Source: Ignicoccus pacificus DSM 13166
GTDB lineage: Archaea > Thermoproteota > Thermoprotei_A > Sulfolobales > Ignicoccaceae
NCBI GenBank assembly: GCA_025340205.1
Contig: CP006868.1
Span: 360,001-392,000, forward strand
Direction: 5' to 3'
Length of the DNA stretch: 32,000 nt
Part shown: in pieces, positions 8,178 to 27,801 of the stretch
Layout of the letters: each line of letters begins with the position of its first letter
Numbering within the stretch: position 1 is the stretch's first letter
Translations under genes and position numbers: made by a program
The notes under the pieces: generated by a model
The model's database searches: none
What the model was told of the DNA's origin: nothing
Seen by the model: only the letters and a program-made list of their open reading frames with translations

Positions 8178-8627
8178 CTAAGGATCCAACTCTTCTAATT
8201 TATTGAGTAACTTAGAAGCGATCAATGGGGCGTCTTTCAGTAGGTCTTTCGCGTGATCAAAGAGTAACTCATAGCCGATATCAGCGTACGTATGTACCAG
8301 CATGTTCCTAAGGCCAGCTATAGCAGCTAGCTTCTTACCCTCGACCTTGCTCAATATTCCTGCCTCACTTAATATCTTTCCTATTTCAGCATAGGTGTTA
8401 GGTGAAGGTAACCTTACTAATGTTATAACTTGTTCACCTAGGTTAAGCAAGGCTTGAATTGCTACCTCAACTTCTCTTTCGAGTATGGCTTCAAGATCGT
8501 TTTCGAATATTTCGCTTAGTCTTATTTTACTTAGTTTCTCCAGCCTAGCCAATGCTTTCCTTAATCTTTTCGTTCTTTCCAGAGCTCCCGGAGATGGTAA
8601 AGGTAAGAGCGAGCCATCCTCTCCCAA
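8178..8627 (-). CDS. HEPN domain protein (DUF86 type), putative toxin of a HEPN/MNT pair
   Basis: GLRNMLVHTYADI is the R-x4-H HEPN motif in the typical DUF86 context. Overlaps the upstream MNT ORF. The true start is probably internal to the listed ORF. Confidence 0.8.
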   Translation of the reverse strand: MGEDGSLLPLPSPGALERTKRLRKALARLEKLSKIRLSEIFENDLEAILEREVEVAIQALLNLGEQVITLVRLPSPNTYAEIGKILSEAGILSKVEGKKLAAIAGLRNMLVHTYADIGYELLFDHAKDLLKDAPLIASKLLNKLEELDP

Positions 8628-8930
8628 GCAAGCTTAAAATCTAACCATTCGTTGATGCTCATAACATAATCCTCTACGAACTCGTTAATTTCCTTGACGT
8701 ATATTCTAATTCCCTTCATTGCCTCATATCTTAAGCTCGGCGGAGATCTATCATAGATTGAGATGTCAACCTTTTTCTTGAGCAAATTTTCAAGCTCAGC
8801 TATGAGCGTTCCGATTTCGTATACCCTTAGCCTTCTACCAAATTTAATCAGATCCACATCGCTTAAGGCGCGCAGGCCTTCCAAGCCTATCAGCGTTTTT
8901 CTTGAAATACTCGCTTAGCATCTCGACCAT
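8561..8930 (-). pseudogene. minimal nucleotidyltransferase (MNT) that appears degenerate (N-terminal frame break, GS motif missing)
   Basis: ORF 8561-8884 keeps SDVDLIKF and KKVDISIY (NT fold C-terminal half). The expected upstream LFGSxARG is absent. A separate frame starting at ATG 8930 encodes MVEMLSEYFKKNADRLG, a typical MNT N-terminus, and then terminates. Confidence 0.5.
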
Positions 8931-9009: not shown

Positions 9010-10260
9010 CTACTGAGCAGTTGCTTGTACCAAGCTCTGGAACTCCTCGGGCTCGATGAAGCAGAGGGGGTCCTCCCCCCAAGGGTCTCCTGTCAGCGCC
9101 CAAGCCCTTCCTCTGCTGCCTCCTCCGCAGACCTCCTTGAAGGGACACCTCCCGCACTTACCCCTCAAGTTCTTGGCTATGTTTAGGAACGGCTGAAGGT
9201 CTGGGTTGTCCTTCCTCAATATCTCTCTCAAGCTCTTCTCTCTGACGTTGCCCAAGGTTACCCAGTCTATGAACTGGCAAGGCTTAACGTCTCCATTAGG
9301 ATAGATGCTTATGCTCTTCCTCCCACAGTCGCCTTGGGCTTGAAGCATGTTGAGGTATTCCTTGAAGTCCTCCTCATCCTTAGCCAGCTTCTTAGCTATG
9401 TAGATACCCATGAAGTTGCCCCTAACTATGAGTATCTCCAGCTTGTCAGCGTACTCCCTAGCGAGATCTATTACGGTATCAGCCATCCACTTGAGCTGCT
9501 CCGGGGTGGGAAGCCAATCCTTTATGTCCTCACCCCTTCCGATTGTGTCTAGCAAGTAGAAGGAGACCCTCTTGATTCCTTGCTCAGCGCTCCACTTGAC
9601 TATGTCCGGCACCTCCTTAACGTTGTACTTAGTTATGGTAGTCCTTATTCCTACGTCCAGTCCCGCTTCTAAGCTGTTCTTTATGCCATCCAAGGTGAGC
9701 TTGAACGCCCCCGGAACTCCCCTGAACTTGTCGTGGTACTGAGGGACTATGGAGTCTATGGAAATTCCAACGTAATCGAACCCATAATCCTTGAGCTTCT
9801 GGGCAACGTCCTTGGTTATCATGGTTCCGTTGGTGCTCAATGAGAGCTTGGGGAATTGAGCCTTAGCCATAGGCTCTATTATCTCCCAGAAGTCCTTCCT
9901 TATTAAGGGCTCTCCTCCAGAGAGGATGACCAAGGGAATCCTCATCTGGACCATTTCCTCGGAGAGCCTCCTGGCCTCCTCCGTGGTGAGCTCCGTTGGA
10001 TCCTGCTGGGCCTTAGCCCTTATGTAACAGTGAAGGCACTTGAGGTTGCACTGGTAAGTTATGTTCCAGAAGACCAAGGGACGGAAGTACTCGGTGAACC
10101 TAGAAGGCTTCTTCTTGTGGTACTCTCCCTTGATCTTTGTGGAGACGGTTCCCCTTCCCACGACCATGGTAGTTACGGGAATCACTCCTGGTACCCAGAT
10201 AGGGGCGTGGGGGACCTTAATTATAGGGCGTATTGAGGGACTAAACCGCCTATCCTTCAA
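9010..10260 (-). CDS. radical SAM enzyme with a C-terminal SPASM-type Cys cluster (AhbD/NirJ/PqqE-like family; function unresolved)
   Basis: CNLKCLHCY is the CxxxCxxC motif. SGGEPL is present. C-terminus has CGRKS...KPCQ...GKCGRCPFKEVCGGGSRGRAW. The listed TTG start at 10260 is doubtful; ATG at 10167 (MVVGRGTV...) is more likely. Confidence 0.85.
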   Translation of the reverse strand: MKDRRFSPSIRPIIKVPHAPIWVPGVIPVTTMVVGRGTVSTKIKGEYHKKKPSRFTEYFRPLVFWNITYQCNLKCLHCYIRAKAQQDPTELTTEEARRLSEEMVQMRIPLVILSGGEPLIRKDFWEIIEPMAKAQFPKLSLSTNGTMITKDVAQKLKDYGFDYVGISIDSIVPQYHDKFRGVPGAFKLTLDGIKNSLEAGLDVGIRTTITKYNVKEVPDIVKWSAEQGIKRVSFYLLDTIGRGEDIKDWLPTPEQLKWMADTVIDLAREYADKLEILIVRGNFMGIYIAKKLAKDEEDFKEYLNMLQAQGDCGRKSISIYPNGDVKPCQFIDWVTLGNVREKSLREILRKDNPDLQPFLNIAKNLRGKCGRCPFKEVCGGGSRGRAWALTGDPWGEDPLCFIEPEEFQSLVQATAQ

Positions 10261-10653
10261 GCCTTTCCTTAATCTTCTCCAGGAGGGCTATGCCTTCCCT
10301 AGCGGTCTTCAAGCAAAGTGCAGAGTCCTCTTCATCGAAGTCTCGCTTCTATGCCCTTCCTAGGTAATAGGCCTCTTCGAGCATTTGAAGGTACGACCTT
10401 TTATTCCTTGAGAACTCGTAGAGCTCTTCGGTATCCATTCCGACCTTGACGAGCTCCTTTATCAGCAATCCGAACAGCTTCCCTAAGTTATGATCTTTTG
10501 TTACCTTACCAAAATACTTAAGCAAAAGTCCTTTCAAGTACAGCTCTAGCGCTTGCTCTGCTGAGGCGCGAGCTAAGTTGTGAAATCGTCCTCTCTTTCC
10601 ACCTCTGCCACTTTCAGGAGCTCGTAGGCCCTTTCGATAAGCCTTTCAGCCAA
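10250..10653 (-). pseudogene. HEPN-domain gene remnant with a frameshift and an in-frame stop
   Basis: Three pieces in two frames: LAERLIERAYELLKVAEVEREDDF / HNLARASAEQALELYLKGLLLKYFGKVTKDHNLGKLFG...EEAYYLGRA* / KRDFDEEDSALCLKTAREGIALLEKIKERLEG*. These align to the intact HEPN at 25433-25852. The frame break is at the A3 run 10583-10585 and the TAG is at 10349-10351. Confidence 0.6.
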
Positions 10654-10917
10654 TTCTTATCACCTTACCCAATCTCTCGTATTCCTTCAACCTAGACTTA
10701 TCAGCAGGGTGAAATTGCAAGGGATAGTTGGGAATAATATTCTCTTCCATTAAGGCCTCGATTACGGAAAGCAGGTATCTGAACTTCGGTCTATACGGAA
10801 ACACCAGCAACAAGTCTACGTCACTCCTAGCGGTGAACTTGCCCTCTGCAACGCTCCCTATTAGGTATACCTCTACCTCAGGATAGACTTTTTAATTATT
10901 TTGATTGTTCTCTTCAT
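10646..10917 (-). pseudogene. nucleotidyltransferase gene with a 1-nt frameshift in a homopolymer
   Basis: MKRTIKIIKK (from ATG 10917) runs into a stop. The next frame reads VYPEVEVYLIGSVAEGKFTARSDVDLLLVF...GKVIRIG* with intact GS and DxD motifs. The break is at the T5 run 10889-10893. Absent from the ORF track. Confidence 0.6.
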
Positions 10918-16285: not shown

Positions 16286-16296
16286 CATTTTTATCT
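16286..16296 (+). promoter_or_regulatory. T-rich/TATA-like element (CATTTTTATCT), either the terminator of the giant gene or the promoter of the next gene
   Basis: T5 run 25 nt after the stop at 16261 and about 35 nt before the TTG at 16327. Confidence 0.3.
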
Positions 16297-19332: not shown

Positions 19333-19339
19333 ATATAAA
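19333..19339 (+). promoter_or_regulatory. TATA box ATATAAA for tRNA-Arg
   Basis: Centred about 31 nt upstream of tRNA position 1. Confidence 0.5.
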
Positions 19340-20202: not shown

Positions 20203-20949
20203 ATGAGCAAGCTAGAGGCGTTGCTTAAACGAATAGAAGAATACTACGAGGAGTTCGTTCAAGCGAAGAGGGAATGGGAAGAAGGGAAGGAGAGGATTTA
20301 CGCAGTCGAAAGGTTGGCCCAGCTCCTAGCTCAGTCCCTCCTCGACTTCTCCGCGATCTTAGCCTCAAGACTCCCTGGAAGGAAGCCGGAGAGTTACAAG
20401 GAATTGGCTGAGTTCTTGGCTTCCAAAATAGGTCATAAGGAGTTCTTGGTCGGCCTTGCTGGGTTTAGAAACGTATTGGTTCATATGTACATCGAACTGG
20501 ATGAGGAGCTAGAGAGGGAGAGCTTCGATGAAATAGAGGAGGAAATGCCCAAAATACTCAAGGCACTGAGGGAATTGGCTAAGGGCGACCCTTGCTTGAG
20601 TGAGGTGAAAAGAGAAATAGCAGAACTAGCTTCCAAGTGGAACCTAAGGTATGTGGCCTTAATAGGTTCTTTAGCTAGGGAAGGATGTGGGAACGACGTG
20701 GATCTAGTCGTGAAATTTGGGAGGATGCCCAAGGGACTGGAGCTTGGGAGGTTTGTGGCAGAAGCTGAAGATGCGCTGGGAAGTAAGGTAGACGTGATAG
20801 TGGTTGACTTGAAGCTGGACCCAATAATGGCAAAGACGATAGTTGATGAAGGGGTGTTGATCTTCGGTAGTGAGGAGGAGTTTGAGGAGGACAAGCTCGT
20901 GTTATATAAGAAGTTCTTAGATGAGAAGAGGCTCGTATTAAATCCATAA
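20203..20949 (+). CDS. fused HEPN (DUF86) - nucleotidyltransferase protein
   Basis: The N-terminal half has GFRNVLVHMYIELD (R-x4-H). The C-terminal half has LIGSLAREGCGNDVDLVV and SKVDVIVVD (GS...DxD minimal NT). All in one 248-aa ORF. Confidence 0.8.
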   Translation: MSKLEALLKRIEEYYEEFVQAKREWEEGKERIYAVERLAQLLAQSLLDFSAILASRLPGRKPESYKELAEFLASKIGHKEFLVGLAGFRNVLVHMYIELDEELERESFDEIEEEMPKILKALRELAKGDPCLSEVKREIAELASKWNLRYVALIGSLAREGCGNDVDLVVKFGRMPKGLELGRFVAEAEDALGSKVDVIVVDLKLDPIMAKTIVDEGVLIFGSEEEFEEDKLVLYKKFLDEKRLVLNP

Positions 20950-22560: not shown

Positions 22561-23472
22561 TTAGGGGAGAGGGAACTGGACTGAGGCGTAGCCAACTACT
22601 TGGCTGTAATCGCCGCTGGTGTCCCCGCTGGTCGCGTGCTTGAGAAGTATTCCTCTATTCCCTCCGTACTTCTTCGTGAGCTCCATTACGGTCATAGTAG
22701 GGCCGGGGCCACACATGCTTATGTCATACTCAAGCAAGGCCTTGTAGAGGCCCTCCGTATCCAAGGCAGTTATTTTCTCTATGGCTATCATATCCTTCTT
22801 CACAGTTACCTCGTGGGGCTCGTAATGGTTTAGGTCGCTGGAAGCTAGAACCACGTAGTCCTTGCCCAGCTTCTCCATGGCCCTGTAGATGCCATCTGCC
22901 AAAGCCTTAGCGGCTTCCGGAGTCTGGAGGCCCATGACAATGGGAACTATCCTGAACTTGTTTCCGAAGAGGTACTGGAGGAAGGGAACTTGGACCTCCA
23001 AGCTGTGCTCGTAAGCGTGGGCGCTTGCATCCACGTCCACTATCCCGCTCTCCCTAACTATCTCCTCCACCGCCTCCGGATCCACGTGTACGTGTCCCAG
23101 AGGAGTCTCCCAGATGCTGGGAGGCATTATGGAAATGGGGCTTCCAACTCCGGTGTGGTTGGGGCCTATGATGATTACCACCTCTGGAGCCCCCTCTTGG
23201 GCCAGCTTGTAGTAGGCCCAAGCCGCTACTGGACCGGAGTAGATGTAGCCGGCGTGAGGAACCATGAAGCCCACGCTCTGCTTGTTCCTCTCCTCGCTAA
23301 CCTTTGGTAGCTCCCCGGGCCCTATCGGATGGGTGAAGCTCCATTCTATCAGCTTGATGAGCTCTTCTGGATCGGCTGGGTAGAAGGTTCCAGCCACCGC
23401 TGGGGGTCTCACTAACACGTTCTCTACCGCTCTCAACATTTCAAGGAGTGAATATGAATGGGGGCCTCCCAA
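22561..23472 (-). CDS. MEMO1-family protein (AmmeMemoRadiSam system protein B-like)
   Basis: RPPAVAGTFYPADPEEL is the hallmark N-terminus. GPNHTG and HSLEVQVPFLQ motifs are present. The probable true start is ATG 23439 (MLRAVENV...). Confidence 0.85.
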   Translation of the reverse strand: MGGPHSYSLLEMLRAVENVLVRPPAVAGTFYPADPEELIKLIEWSFTHPIGPGELPKVSEERNKQSVGFMVPHAGYIYSGPVAAWAYYKLAQEGAPEVVIIIGPNHTGVGSPISIMPPSIWETPLGHVHVDPEAVEEIVRESGIVDVDASAHAYEHSLEVQVPFLQYLFGNKFRIVPIVMGLQTPEAAKALADGIYRAMEKLGKDYVVLASSDLNHYEPHEVTVKKDMIAIEKITALDTEGLYKALLEYDISMCGPGPTMTVMELTKKYGGNRGILLKHATSGDTSGDYSQVVGYASVQFPLP

Positions 23473-23687
23473 TGAGAGTACTATATTTTAAGTGCAAGAA
23501 ATACAGAAGTAACTGGGAATATAGAGTGTCCTTAGCAGAACAAATAGAGACTATTTTAGAGAACCTTACTGAAGAAGAGCCTTCAGATGAGGAGATACAG
23601 ATTATTGAAGATTATGAAAAAAGGGTAAAGATGGGAAAGGTAGATCTCCGTCCTCTCGATGAGCTCTTAAAGAAGCTCAGATGTTGA
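23448..23687 (+). CDS. small acidic protein, possibly an antitoxin-like addiction-module component
   Basis: The C-terminal pattern EEPSDEEIQIIEDYEKRVKMGKVDLRPLDELLKKL resembles antitoxins partnered with RelE/ParE. A GGAG sequence lies 5-6 nt before ATG 23454. AT-rich. Confidence 0.4.
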   Translation: MNMNGGLPMRVLYFKCKKYRSNWEYRVSLAEQIETILENLTEEEPSDEEIQIIEDYEKRVKMGKVDLRPLDELLKKLRC

Positions 23688-23693
23688 AGTTGA

Positions 23694-24008
23694 TTATTTC
23701 TTCTTGTACGCGTTCTTACGAGGTCCGATATGAGTAATTACGAATACCTTTTCGTCTTTGCAATACTTGACTATTATCCTACACTTTCCAGCTCTTATTC
23801 GGTAGTAGTTTACTTGACCTTGAAGTTTTACTATATCAACGCTTTTGGGCCCTTTCTTACAGAGGAGCAGTAAGGTTTCTTTTATCTTCTTACAATCATC
23901 CTTACTTATGTGCTTCAGATCCTTTGACAACGCTTTATTATCATAGAGTATAGGTATTATGCAATCGTTGAGGTCCGCATCACTTAGATCACAACGCTTA
24001 GATCTCAT
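23694..24008 (-). CDS. RelE/ParE-family toxin
   Basis: The C-terminal core VKLQGQVNYYRIRAGKCRIIVKYCKDEKVFVITHIGPRKNAYKK matches the kL.g....yRiRvGdYRiiY...d....v..i.hR...Y pattern. Confidence 0.75.
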   Translation of the reverse strand: MRSKRCDLSDADLNDCIIPILYDNKALSKDLKHISKDDCKKIKETLLLLCKKGPKSVDIVKLQGQVNYYRIRAGKCRIIVKYCKDEKVFVITHIGPRKNAYKKK

Positions 24009-24079
24009 CGTTCATCACAAGGGGTGCCGATGTTGGGATTCGCGAGGACTTGAGAAGACACGACACCCCTTACACCCAT
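24005..24079 (-). CDS. 24-codon ORF translationally coupled (ATGA overlap) to the RelE-like gene
   Basis: GAGGAGGTG precedes the ATG. Reads MGVRGVVSSQVLANPNIGTPCDER. Too short for a normal antitoxin, so it may be a remnant or non-coding. Confidence 0.2.
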   Translation of the reverse strand: MGVRGVVSSQVLANPNIGTPCDER

Positions 24080-24237
24080 CACCTCCTCAAGACTGTAATA
24101 CGTTCCTTTCCCTATAAAACCTTATTCACTGAGACACATGAGTGAATTTGTAAGTTATTGCTTCTATAAAAGCTATTGTATTGCGTTCTCCGGTATTCAC
24201 GCTGAACCTCTAATGCTTTCCTACCCTTGTGATCCTC

Positions 24238-25146
24238 TTAAGTGTTTGCTGAAGGTACGGCAGAGAACACGTGACCGCTCCAAAGACCCATGAGGAGTTC
24301 ATTCCCTTCCCATCTTAGATCAGCGATTTTACTCTTAAAAGAAACCTTCCACTTGGGAATGCTTCTTTTATTTACGCTGATAACCTTGATCCATCTCCCA
24401 TTGATCGACGCTGCAGCCAATTTATCGCAAAACGGCCTATTGAATGAAACCAAGTAGGAACCTTCCTCCTTTAGATTTCCGACCCATAAAAGGCTGGGGT
24501 TTGAGGATCCATTCAGTAAATATAGACGTAAGTGACCCTTAGAGGAGAGGGTTGCTAACTTGTCTTTGCAGACATCGAAACTATGCTCGTAGGGTGAAAG
24601 GTTGAAGGTACTGACTATTTCTCCATTGTGTATGTTGATTATGTACATCAATCCTTGTCTAACTGGTAAGACGTACAAAAAGTCGCCTATCCTTTGGGGG
24701 AATGCTTTGATTTCCCCAAAGCCTCTACTCCAGAGCCTTTTCCCTTCCCAATTATGAGCTACTATTTGTCTTGGTGCTAGGCTTACAATAGCATCTTTAT
24801 AAAGTCTGATATGTCTAATGCTTTGTTGAAGACCTAGAAGAGGGAAGTATTCCCATCTACTTTCTTCGGTATCGAATAAATACAAGACATTTCTATAGCT
24901 CGCAAATCCCAGCTTGCCACAGCACTTGTGAACAGTCCTCATAACTACATCATCTTGCTTATATGAAATTATATCAAGGTCTTGGATTATATAGGCGTAT
25001 CCCCTCCTCGTCGCCACGCCGATGAAGCTTCCCAAACGATCGAGTTCCATTACTCCCGAGGGAAGGCGGAGGAACCAGTTCAAGAGAAGATTCGGAGATT
25101 TATTCTCTACTGGGAGCCTTTTACTCAAGAACGTCACTTCTTTCAA
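24238..25146 (-). CDS. hypothetical all-beta repeat protein (beta-propeller-like)
   Basis: 302 aa with a TTG start. Recurring ~40-aa units end in aromatic/W motifs (LYLFDTEESRW, VAHNWEGKRLW, PSLLWVGNL, IPKWKVSF, IADLRWEG). AT-rich. Confidence 0.5.
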   Translation of the reverse strand: MKEVTFLSKRLPVENKSPNLLLNWFLRLPSGVMELDRLGSFIGVATRRGYAYIIQDLDIISYKQDDVVMRTVHKCCGKLGFASYRNVLYLFDTEESRWEYFPLLGLQQSIRHIRLYKDAIVSLAPRQIVAHNWEGKRLWSRGFGEIKAFPQRIGDFLYVLPVRQGLMYIINIHNGEIVSTFNLSPYEHSFDVCKDKLATLSSKGHLRLYLLNGSSNPSLLWVGNLKEEGSYLVSFNRPFCDKLAAASINGRWIKVISVNKRSIPKWKVSFKSKIADLRWEGNELLMGLWSGHVFSAVPSANT

Positions 25147-25432
25147 TTTCTTTACCTTCAGTATTTGGAGATAATGTAGTAGAATAGGAACTAATCCTCG
25201 CCTTTCCTTTCCTCGTCTCAGCTAAGAGCAAGGACTCAATCCTTATCTCCTCTCCCGCTACAATTATGTCCCTATTCTCAAGGAATTCCACCGTATCCTC
25301 TCTTTCCAGTGCAGAATAGAAGACTGGAAGGACTCTGAAAGCACTTCCTAGGTCCCTTTTTCATGACTCTTCATCTCTTCATAATATGGTGACCTTTTTA
25401 CTTTCCGCTTTCATGAAAAAGACATATTGTAG

Positions 25433-25852
25433 TTGGATTCAAAGAAGCTATCGTGGGCTGAGTTGGTTTTCTTATTAAAGGAAAGAGCTATTGAATTCAT
25501 GAAGTTGGCCGAAGAGGCCTTGAGAGACGGAAGATACGACGTAGCTTGTGCCCTCTTCGAACAAGCATTCCAACTTTACTTGAAGTACATGCTCCTGAGG
25601 TTTTACAGTATAAGGGTGAAGAGCCACGACTTGAGGGAACTTATTGGAATCCTCGCATTGAAGACAGGAAACGAGAGACTAGCCGACTTTGCCAAAAGGA
25701 ATAGGTCTGAGCTAATACTCCTCGAGGAATCCTATTACGTGGGAAGGTATGGAGAGTACGAGTTTGAAGAAGAGGAAGGAAGGGCTTGTGAGAGGGTTAC
25801 GAAAAGAGCCTTCGAACTACTTCACGAGATTGAGCGGTCCCTTGAGGATTAA
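25433..25852 (+). CDS. HEPN domain protein (PF05168-like)
   Basis: AEEALRDGRYDVACALFEQAFQLYLKYML...KSHDLRELI...ESYYVGRY is a typical HEPN four-helix pattern. TTG start. Confidence 0.8.
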   Translation: MDSKKLSWAELVFLLKERAIEFMKLAEEALRDGRYDVACALFEQAFQLYLKYMLLRFYSIRVKSHDLRELIGILALKTGNERLADFAKRNRSELILLEESYYVGRYGEYEFEEEEGRACERVTKRAFELLHEIERSLED

Positions 25853-25853
25853 G

Positions 25854-26213
25854 GTGCTTAAAGAATGGAAAAGGTATCTGCCAACGGTAACCTCAATACT
25901 AAATGACATATTCAAAAACTGCAAGATCTATGTAATAGGAAGTGCTCTGAGGGAGGCGTTCCACGCTAAGAGCGACGTAGATTTGCTGATAATTTGTAGG
26001 GAGAGGCCCATGATGAGGGAAGTTGTCACTGCCTTGATGAAGCTTGAGGACATCGGAATCCCCAAGATCTTCCAACTCCACGTAGGAGATCGTGAAGACT
26101 TAGATAGATATAGGTCCTTAGGAGAGGTAGTTCCCCTAGAGGAGCTTTTACCCCCTGAGGAAAATCTAAAAGGGCGAAACAGTGCCTCCAGTGATAAGGA
26201 AAGTAATGGTTAG
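25854..26213 (+). CDS. minimal nucleotidyltransferase
   Basis: IYVIGSALREAFHAKSDVDLLII (GS...DxD). The GTG at 25854 is 1 nt after the HEPN stop. The track ORF 25749-26213 is in the same frame. Confidence 0.8.
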   Translation: MLKEWKRYLPTVTSILNDIFKNCKIYVIGSALREAFHAKSDVDLLIICRERPMMREVVTALMKLEDIGIPKIFQLHVGDREDLDRYRSLGEVVPLEELLPPEENLKGRNSASSDKESNG

Positions 26214-27270
26214 CGGCTACAAGGCAATTCCTTATGACAAGCCCGTTATCCTTGAACTTGGAGAGAAACTAACGTTGCTGGTGGGACCTAACGCAGCTGG
26301 GAAGAGCGCAGTCCTAGAGGCCTTGTACTACGTTCTAAATGGGAAGAGTTTCCCGGTTGAATATTCCTATAAGAAACTAGGTAGGTACGTGATCCTTTCG
26401 GTAGTCTTTCAACAAAAGGATGAACTGAAAACCCTTCTGTACTTGTACACTGTAACTTCGGGGTCAACATATACGCTCGAAGAAGTAGTAGAGATTAGAG
26501 GTGACGTCCTTGAAAAGATATCCAGCATTACTAAAAAGATTAGCTATGCTAATACGGATGAAGTCATGAACTCCATCTATCAAATTAGTTCCGATGTAGT
26601 ACATACGGGCATAGAACTTATAGATATACAAAGACCACTATACTTTGAAGGAGACCTTATTAAGAGGGAGAAAGTCCTTTCCCTTTTGTTTAAGCAGTAC
26701 GGTTTGATTAGTGAAGGAATAAAGAGGGTTGATGAGTGGGTAAAATTACTCGGATATACGAGATTTAGAACCTTAATCAACGAAAGAGGAGACTTCGTCT
26801 ATGAGTTTTATGATGGCAGAAGTGGAGAATGGATTAGGATAGATGAATGTGCGGGAGGTCTACGGTCTACCGTAGGTCTGATCTATTCGCTTAGCTGTCC
26901 CATTGAGATGATGTTAATCGATGACGTTGAGGTAGGTCTCCACCCCTCGCTCCAAATACGACTTCTTGAGGAGCTCTTGAAATGGCATGGACAAGTAATT
27001 GTGTCATCTCATAGCGAGACAGTGTTCTACTATTTGTTGTATAGAAAAAAGGAGCTAGGCGATAAGATAAAGATAAACTTGATGTACAGAGACGAAGAGG
27101 CAGTGTATGCTGAGGAAATAGGAAGGGAGATTCCGATAAAGCTCAGTAAGAAGGCAGAGAAGGCCTTGAAGGAGTTCGGAGCTTATGGTCTATTTGGAGA
27201 GAGTGGGTTCTACTCCCTAAAGGCCCTCTTAGAGGGAAATGAAAATGAGAAAGATAGTAGTAATAGATAA
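26182..27270 (+). CDS. ABC/SMC-like AAA ATPase (AAA_15/AAA_21-like)
   Basis: Walker A LLVGPNAAGKS, signature-like AGGLRS, Walker B MMLIDDVEVGLHP, SSHS H-loop. The start could be GTG 26182, GTG 26191 or ATG 26206; the last overlaps the NT stop. Confidence 0.85.
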   Translation: MPPVIRKVMVSGYKAIPYDKPVILELGEKLTLLVGPNAAGKSAVLEALYYVLNGKSFPVEYSYKKLGRYVILSVVFQQKDELKTLLYLYTVTSGSTYTLEEVVEIRGDVLEKISSITKKISYANTDEVMNSIYQISSDVVHTGIELIDIQRPLYFEGDLIKREKVLSLLFKQYGLISEGIKRVDEWVKLLGYTRFRTLINERGDFVYEFYDGRSGEWIRIDECAGGLRSTVGLIYSLSCPIEMMLIDDVEVGLHPSLQIRLLEELLKWHGQVIVSSHSETVFYYLLYRKKELGDKIKINLMYRDEEAVYAEEIGREIPIKLSKKAEKALKEFGAYGLFGESGFYSLKALLEGNENEKDSSNR

Positions 27271-27742
27271 GAGTGCTTTCCAAACGGAACCTAGCACTTG
27301 CGTGAAAGACGTAGTCGGAACGACCTTTTGTATACTAAGCCACGCTTCCCTTTGCCACTTCATCATATACATTCCCAAAGAAGCGTTCGAAAAAGAATGG
27401 AAAGACGCTTATAGGGGTTCAAGCATCCTCGATATAATGTCGGGTCTAGCTAAGGCCTACATCTCTGGTGTGCTAAAGGATTGTCAAGAGAGCACAACTA
27501 GTTGTTTACTTGCTAACATTTTCAGAAAGAGGAAGATTGTGCTCCGCAACGTCGGAGGTAATGTAAGGAACTTGAACCTCAAGGATCCCGACTACCTTTA
27601 CGTTGAGCTGGCTCTTCGATTAAAGGGCGAGAGCTCTCACGTATACCTCATAACGTGCGATGGAGATATGGAAAGGGTAGCTAGGCGTGAGGGAATAGTT
27701 GCTCTTGATCCCCAAGAGCTCTGTAACCAGCTCCTTAGGTAA
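27239..27742 (+). CDS. PIN-domain nuclease-like protein
   Basis: KIVVIDKSAF (D10), PKEAFEKE (E48/E51), KDPDYLYVELALRL (D116/D118), YLITCDGDMERVARREGI (D141) follow the spacing of PIN acidic residues. Overlaps the ATPase stop by 32 nt. Confidence 0.6.
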   Translation: MKMRKIVVIDKSAFQTEPSTCVKDVVGTTFCILSHASLCHFIIYIPKEAFEKEWKDAYRGSSILDIMSGLAKAYISGVLKDCQESTTSCLLANIFRKRKIVLRNVGGNVRNLNLKDPDYLYVELALRLKGESSHVYLITCDGDMERVARREGIVALDPQELCNQLLR

Positions 27743-27801
27743 GCGCCCTAAGGGGTCTAGGATTTCAATCTCCCCCTCCCTTCTCCCTCAGGGGTTCACT
27801 A

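Follow-up and report, generated by a model that had tools for sequence, protein, structure and literature searches.

A cassette of four tightly packed genes, encoding a HEPN protein, a minimal nucleotidyltransferase (NT, abbreviated MNT in the names of known pairs), an ABC-type ATPase and a small PIN-like protein (gene 4), lies on one strand of a 32,000-nt stretch of the Ignicoccus pacificus DSM 13166 genome (CP006868.1, positions 360,001-392,000; NCBI assembly GCA_025340205.1), the whole of which is referred to below as the window. The reading favoured here, to which a probability of roughly 65% is assigned, is that a HEPN-MNT pair of the toxin-antitoxin (TA) type (module A) and an ABC-ATPase/PIN-like effector pair (module B) lie stacked in an accessory island and probably share a transcript. 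Two self-contained two-gene modules would have become neighbours in a small island of low GC content, both probably being transcribed from one promoter upstream of the HEPN gene. This reading is preferred because a pair of the ATPase and gene 4 type was found at another locus without HEPN and NT genes, and three further HEPN/NT modules of the window were found without ATPase and PIN genes, and because both kinds of pair have precedents (HEC-03, Menshen, PARIS, Septu and HEPN-MNT dyads) that are joined by matches of the ATPase to PADLOC defence models.

The four genes described in the initial annotation were borne out as open reading frames (ORFs) at the same coordinates (Table 1), and its HEPN, NT and ATPase domain calls were right, with Pfam profile matches for all three. 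All four ORFs are real genes, since three have significant domain matches and gene 4 has a syntenic homologue elsewhere; the ATPase, gene 4 and HEPN proteins are identical to I. pacificus proteins held by NCBI (IPA_02210 and IPA_02215 being the ids named). A spacer of 1 nt separates the HEPN and NT genes, and GAGGA precedes the GTG start of the latter at 25854. The ATPase gene has in-frame start candidates at 26182, 26191 and 26206, of which the NCBI annotation uses 26191, and N-terminal conservation with its single homologue favours this start or the earlier one; the NT/ATPase overlap is 23 nt for the start at 26191, and 32 or 8 nt for the other starts. Gene 4 may start at an ATG at 27239 or at 27245. 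The 32-nt overlap with the ATPase gene that had been reported holds for the former, and is 26 nt with the NCBI start at 27245.

The independence of module B is seen from the sole detectable relative of the ATPase, a protein (P0003; 40% identity, E 4e-82) that was returned by a word-indexed homologue search and is encoded at a locus, L001, of another archaeal assembly (NCBI assembly GCA_054016895.1). A homologue of gene 4 lies directly downstream of the P0003 gene with a 4-nt overlap (GTGA), and is 57% identical to gene 4 in the N-terminal half and 27% identical in the C-terminal half. On its upstream side the L001 ATPase gene is separated by 103 nt from a divergent 283-aa gene with no Pfam hit, beyond which lies ThrRS, and no HEPN or NT gene was found within the 12.5 kb of L001 examined. 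The ATPase and gene 4 therefore form a conserved two-gene unit that exists without a HEPN-NT pair, as judged from this single comparator. Further relatives of the cassette proteins were not found: the word-indexed search returned only gene 4 for gene 4 and only the HEPN protein for the HEPN protein, gene 4 was again its own sole match when 1.84 billion representatives were searched exhaustively with phmmer, alignment scans revealed no further relatives of the ATPase in genome, metagenome and viral contigs or of gene 4 in metagenome contigs, and tblastn against plasmids gave none for the ATPase and noise only for gene 4. With two members found in the large collections searched, the ATPase/PIN-like pair appears to be a very divergent, lineage-restricted archaeal (hyperthermophile) form.

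Pairs of the module A kind occur without module B in the window itself. Its 32 kb contain four HEPN/NT modules, of which one is decayed, another is a fusion and a third has inverted gene order; one of the four adjoins an ATPase-PIN pair, and no ATPase or PIN neighbours were found at the other three. The first of these is a decayed paralogue of the cassette pair that was identified by tblastn on the window (NT, 37% identity over 78 aa; HEPN, 37% over 122 aa), with Pfam matches to NTP_transf_2 (9e-8) and HEPN (6.5e-14). Its genes stand in the usual order, NT then HEPN, and are disrupted by frameshifts and, within the conserved RY motif, by an in-frame stop. The pair is flanked by an MFS transporter gene and by a radical-SAM/SPASM gene that abuts the HEPN gene. 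The second is a canonical pair of overlapping NT and HepT (DUF86) ORFs, the HepT protein having an RNMLVHTY motif and a Pfam match of 2e-20. The NT of this second pair matches its profile from position 27 on, and its N-terminus may be truncated or mis-started. The third is a single ORF in which a HepT-like (DUF86) domain (residues 8-120, E 9e-15) is followed by a Polbeta-type NT domain (residues 139-225, E 6e-8), an apparent toxin-antitoxin fusion that has its HEPN domain first, as in the cassette. The window shows a dense population of HEPN/NT modules in a small genome.

Stacking is also supported by the low GC content at third codon positions (GC3) of all four genes and by the presence of a RelE-like toxin in the same island. 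The GC content of the island is 41-46%, relative to approximately 52% in its flanks, and GC3 is 0.40-0.54 for the island genes (0.45-0.54 for the four cassette genes) compared with 0.61-0.72 for Memo, MetRS, the radical-SAM gene and Dph2. If stacking is the true explanation, the cassette is an ordinary example of an archaeal accessory island in which toxin and defence modules have piled up, and warns against reading mechanistic coupling from overlapping junctions when the genome is compact.

Table 1 Features of the cassette and of its surroundings, in window coordinates
Feature	Position	Strand	Description
HEPN protein	25433-25852	+	TTG start, TAA stop; 139 aa; predicted RNase toxin or NT partner
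Minimal nucleotidyltransferase (NT)	25854-26213	+	GTG start, TAG stop; 119 aa; predicted HEPN antitoxin/modifier
ABC-type ATPase (OLD-ABC / AAA_15 / AAA_21)	26191-27270	+	GTG start, TAA stop; 359 aa; predicted sensor/regulator of gene 4
Gene 4, PIN-like protein	27245-27742	+	ATG start, TAA stop; 165 aa; predicted nuclease effector
TATA-like hexamer TTTTTA	25395-25400	+	38 nt upstream of HEPN TTG; candidate promoter (inferred)
Decayed paralogue of NT-HEPN pair	10256-10888	-	NT ~10888-10658, HEPN ~10621-10256; comparator, outside cassette
NT + HepT (DUF86) pair	8178-8884	-	NT 8561-8884, HepT 8178-8627; overlapping ORFs
HepT-NT fusion	20203-20949	+	Single 248-aa ORF; apparent toxin-antitoxin fusion
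Low-GC accessory island	23473-27801		Between Memo-like gene and MetRS
RelE-like toxin in island	23694-24008	-	PHROG 3.3e-10; Pfam ParE_toxin just under cut-off
302-aa ORF in island	24238-25146	-	Divergent from cassette; no Pfam or PHROG match

The composition of module A agrees with that of known dyads, in which a small HEPN protein and a minimal NT with a GS-x10-DxD motif are encoded by adjacent, co-oriented and translationally coupled genes. The HEPN protein matches Pfam PF05168 (E 4.2e-19; 69.3 bits, cut-off 22) and contains an SHDL motif and a C-terminal tyrosine-rich YYVGRY motif (YYVGRYGEY). The NT scores above the Pfam cut-offs for Polbeta (28.4 bits), MTPAP-like (27.9) and NTP_transf_2 (24.6), and its GS-x10-DVD motif, read directly as GSALREAFHAKSDVD, conforms to the minimal-NT pattern hG[GS]x9-13DxD. 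Type VII MntA-HepT is the studied example of such dyads, with neutralisation by (poly)adenylylation of a toxin tyrosine, and AMPylation has been shown in the DUF86/HepT family. The literature counts PF05168/MNT dyads among TA modules, and a C-terminal tyrosine-rich motif has been proposed as the site of nucleotidylylation. The HEPN protein of module A would be an RNase that the NT restrains by binding and/or nucleotidylylation. HEPN-MNT dyads are expanded in thermophilic archaea, where they are abundant and sometimes clustered, with several copies per region, and the MNT gene is almost always 5' (PMC3710099).

The ATPase of module B is ABC-type, not AAA+, with Pfam matches to AAA_21 (2.7e-17), AAA_15 (1.8e-14) and SMC_N (6e-9) and with DUF3696 absent from the Pfam output. 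Its Walker A (GPNAAGKS), signature (AGGLR), Walker B (LIDDVE) and H-loop (SSHSE) motifs are invariant in P0003. The PADLOC models that it matches are AriA (9e-18, the best), NsnB (3.8e-13), mad3, GajA, PtuA and AbiLi. The block that is best conserved with P0003 is the C-terminal tail (residues 318-345, LSxKAxxALKEFGxxGLFGESxFYSLK), which, by analogy with NsnB and PtuA, could be an effector-binding surface. An oligomer of the ATPase would bind and silence the small nuclease, probably via this tail, and following a trigger (for example virus infection or DNA damage) would free or activate it, resulting in RNA cleavage and growth arrest.

Such an arrangement has several bacterial precedents, none of which is identical to the cassette. 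HEC-03 (Payne et al., bioRxiv 10.1101/2024.01.29.577857) is a validated phage defence pair of an ABC ATPase (HEC-03A) and a VapC-like PIN protein (HEC-03B), both genes of which are needed; sensing is ascribed to the ATPase and the effector role to the PIN protein. It resembles module B as a two-gene unit in which an ABC-type ATPase is followed by a small stand-alone PIN or PIN-like protein. HEC-03 is bacterial, and since gene 4 matches no PADLOC model and there is no HEC-03A model among the best 25 of 132 PADLOC matches of the ATPase, the likeness is one of architecture and not of demonstrated family membership. In Menshen, the AAA_15 ATPase NsnB, which has a DUF3696 tail, is followed by NsnC, which has an N-terminal PIN-like domain to which the C-terminal tail of NsnB binds in AlphaFold 3 models (PMC12065111). 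The likeness to Menshen extends to an AAA_15-type ATPase directly before a PIN-like protein, to an NsnB model that matches the ATPase end to end (residues 28-320 on model positions 21-319 of 345; E 1.6e-15 for P0003) and to the strongly conserved ATPase C-terminal tail, as expected for effector binding. However, Menshen has a third, upstream sensor gene, NsnA (ParB-DUF262), before the ATPase and PIN-like genes (PMC12065111), whereas HEPN and NT genes take that place in the cassette, and NsnC consists of an inactive PIN-like domain and a C-terminal toxin, whereas gene 4 is one domain without a toxin and keeps the D-E-D-D residues that the Menshen inactive PIN (inPIN) domains lack. In PARIS (AriA/AriB) and Septu (PtuA/PtuB) an OLD-ABC ATPase sequesters or regulates a small separate nuclease that is bound to it (PMC12065111). 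The best match of the cassette ATPase is to AriA, and many are to PtuA, although this relation is due to generic ABC motifs only; the cassette ATPase is smaller (359 aa), and the Toprim/DUF4435 or HNH effectors of PARIS and Septu are unlike the PIN-like gene 4, for which no match to Toprim, DUF4435 or AriB was found in Pfam or PADLOC. The ATPase/PIN-like pair may accordingly be described as a candidate archaeal counterpart of the bacterial defence architecture of HEC-03, Menshen, PARIS and Septu.

Several observations weigh against the two-module reading, and bear on the nature of each pair as well as on the separateness of the two. For module A, the NCBIfam MntA equivalog (MntA_antitoxin) scored 18.9 bits on the NT, far under its cut-off of 60; the HEPN gene (25433) lies upstream of the NT gene (25854), the inverse of the usual dyad order; and the basic motif of the HEPN protein, IRVKSHDL, keeps the histidine with arginines at -4 (RVKSH, or Rx3H) and at -9, whereas the strict form is Rx4-6H. 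The HEPN protein is also of PF05168, unlike the toxin of type VII MntA-HepT, which is of the DUF86/HepT family (PF01934) with an RX4HXY motif. The decayed paralogue has KVTKDHNL at the basic motif, and a weak alignment with PDB 1wol (IEKRGH) shows variation at the basic position. These features would suit an alternative in which module A is not a TA system but a two-subunit nucleotidyltransferase with another target, encoded next to an ATPase-nuclease pair to which it is unrelated, the HEPN protein being a catalytically inert, substrate-binding subunit as in kanamycin nucleotidyltransferase; HEPN domains that are tied to NTs as binding subunits have been described (PMC3710099). The paralogue, being a pseudogene pair, is weakened as a comparator for module A. 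As the HEPN protein retains the histidine with a basic residue close by and has the proposed nucleotidylylation motif, as dyads of this family are regarded as TA modules, and as the paralogue has undergone the decay that is frequent in dispensable TA copies, a two-subunit enzyme of this kind is considered unlikely and a TA-type pair is preferred.

For module B, the comparison consists of one locus, and there the reading frame of the gene-4 homologue is shifted by +1 at a run of five G residues (AGGGGGA; L001 positions 9197-9210). With one G taken out, an ORF of 155 aa is regained, which has 39% identity to gene 4, and the frameshift is either an assembly error or the mark of a recent pseudogene. 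The ATPase has an Asp after the Walker B Asp (DD) in place of Glu (DE), due to which it may bind ATP yet hydrolyse it poorly. AlphaFold2 gave unusable models both for the ATPase (two-sequence alignment, pLDDT 39) and for gene 4 (single sequence, pLDDT 39). Furthermore, nothing was found at threshold for gene 4 in Pfam, NCBIfam, PADLOC, PHROGs or PDB sequences, and neither gene 4 nor its L001 homologue matched a PADLOC model at E<=1, such that the earlier assignment of gene 4 to the PIN family stands as a plausible PIN-like fold without a profile match at threshold.

It was therefore considered whether gene 4, instead of being an active PIN nuclease, is an inactive adaptor like the inPIN domains of Menshen NsnC, or a protein of another fold, for example PD-(D/E)xK, in which case the ATPase pair would work differently or be no toxin module. 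The lack of a significant PIN profile match and the broken L001 copy are consistent with this, as is the finding that the influenza PA endonuclease gives the best weak matches, slightly ahead of PIN proteins (E 0.18-1 for the two-sequence profile; Flu_PA E 0.005 for the L001 homologue). In addition, hhalign did not separate annotated PIN proteins from 25 control proteins of the pSYSA plasmid when these were compared with the gene-4 pair, which is a test without power, and a regex scan of the fetched loci for VapC-like ORFs gave one candidate only. A PA-N-like PD-(D/E)xK nuclease was rejected because the I. pacificus protein has N and R at the positions of the PA catalytic residues D108 and E119. 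On the side of a PIN nuclease, gene 4 shares with its L001 homologue four acidic residues (D8, E46, D116 and D139) in the order D-E-D-D and with PIN-like spacing, and their contexts are typical of PIN domains: VVxDKSAF, with its '..VVxD' core, on the first strand; IPKEAFExEW; and D-x22-LITxD, with its 'LITxD..' strand, which is followed by a helix and G(I/V)xAL-P-x-E. Sub-threshold matches of the two-sequence profile to the Rrp44 PIN region (E 0.87) and of the L001 protein to PIN_5 (E 0.061) both align to the C-terminal region of gene 4 that contains LITxD, and UniRef independently names the protein 'PIN domain-containing protein'. Gene 4 is thus probably PIN-like, as far as can be read from these residues, and there is only a small likelihood that it is an adaptor or a nuclease of another fold.

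The third point against two separate modules is that three consecutive minimal or overlapping junctions and one TATA-like element suggest a single operon, an arrangement that would accord with a functional link between the four genes. Between 24796 and 31058 the + strand has no TTTWWA other than the TTTTTA hexamer upstream of the HEPN gene, and TTTWWA is depleted across the window (40 observed relative to 74 +/- 9 in shuffles). Several copies of TTTWWA lie 30-40 nt 5' of gene or tRNA starts, at 16288, 19618, 25395 and 31256, and on the - strand at 19334, a pattern that fits TATA boxes together with selection against spurious copies. As the lone + strand hexamer near the cassette lies upstream of HEPN, one promoter at this place and co-transcription of the four genes are plausible. 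MetRS and the next gene also have no such hexamer, so its absence within the cassette is compatible with internal promoters. The claim of a single operon is therefore plausible as regards the promoter, but the tight junctions on which it had been built are common here, being found at approximately 4/13 of the other same-strand junctions of the window and frequent in a compact genome. A scan for bacterial-type promoters and terminators was uninformative. Only 59 nt (27743-27801, 58% GC) lie between gene 4 and MetRS, with no T-tract and no TATA-like hexamer. Transcription of the cassette may read through into MetRS.

The initial annotation had gone further, in proposing that the four proteins constitute one composite system rather than two modules. 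In such a system the HEPN-NT pair would be a sensor or regulator arm that occupies the position of NsnA in Menshen, or the ATPase would control both RNases; stated more fully, HEPN/NT would sense for, or license, the ATPase/PIN arm in a dual-RNase, NT-gated module of which L001 is a reduced version. Besides the tight junctions and the single TATA-like element, this is favoured by the sensor gene upstream of the Menshen pair, by the unusual HEPN-first order, which brings the NT directly beside the ATPase, and by the control that ABC ATPases exert over fused HEPN RNases in PrrC and RloC (PMC3710099). However, the two pairs occur apart, at L001 and in the three other modules of the window, and so, as far as the data reach, the composite claim falls under the refuting condition set in the initial annotation and is not supported. 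Overlaps with unrelated genes are common here, an example being the radical-SAM gene that adjoins the decayed HEPN paralogue. The overlap between the NT and ATPase genes is itself due to a P/E/S/N-rich tail by which the cassette NT extends 26 residues past the conserved LGxV motif into the ATPase gene; a 22-aa portion of this tail is missing from the paralogue, the NT of which ends 4 residues after LGxV, and because of this the overlap looks like a secondary run-on, not an evolved coupling. No further instance was found in the genome, metagenome and viral scans. Both halves of the cassette are of described kinds (HEPN-MNT, and ABC ATPase with PIN). A composite system is thus very improbable, and retains a slight weight because the comparative sample is tiny and because ABC ATPases do control fused HEPN RNases. 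If true, a dual-RNase, NT-gated, ATPase-controlled module would be previously undescribed.

The surroundings of the cassette were examined in addition to the cassette itself. A genome scan anchored on MetRS gave distant relatives only, and at the closest of these (L002, 74% identity) a membrane protein is encoded upstream of MetRS and there is no cassette, but synteny is not conserved there. The 302-aa ORF of the island has no relation to the L002 ORF near MetRS. No flanking direct or inverted repeats marking an insertion were found around the island, and an Rfam scan of the window gave two tRNAs and no other family. No antitoxin ORF was found upstream of the RelE-like toxin gene. A convergent ORF encoding an acidic protein of 79 aa (23448-23687, + strand) lies tail to tail with this toxin gene.

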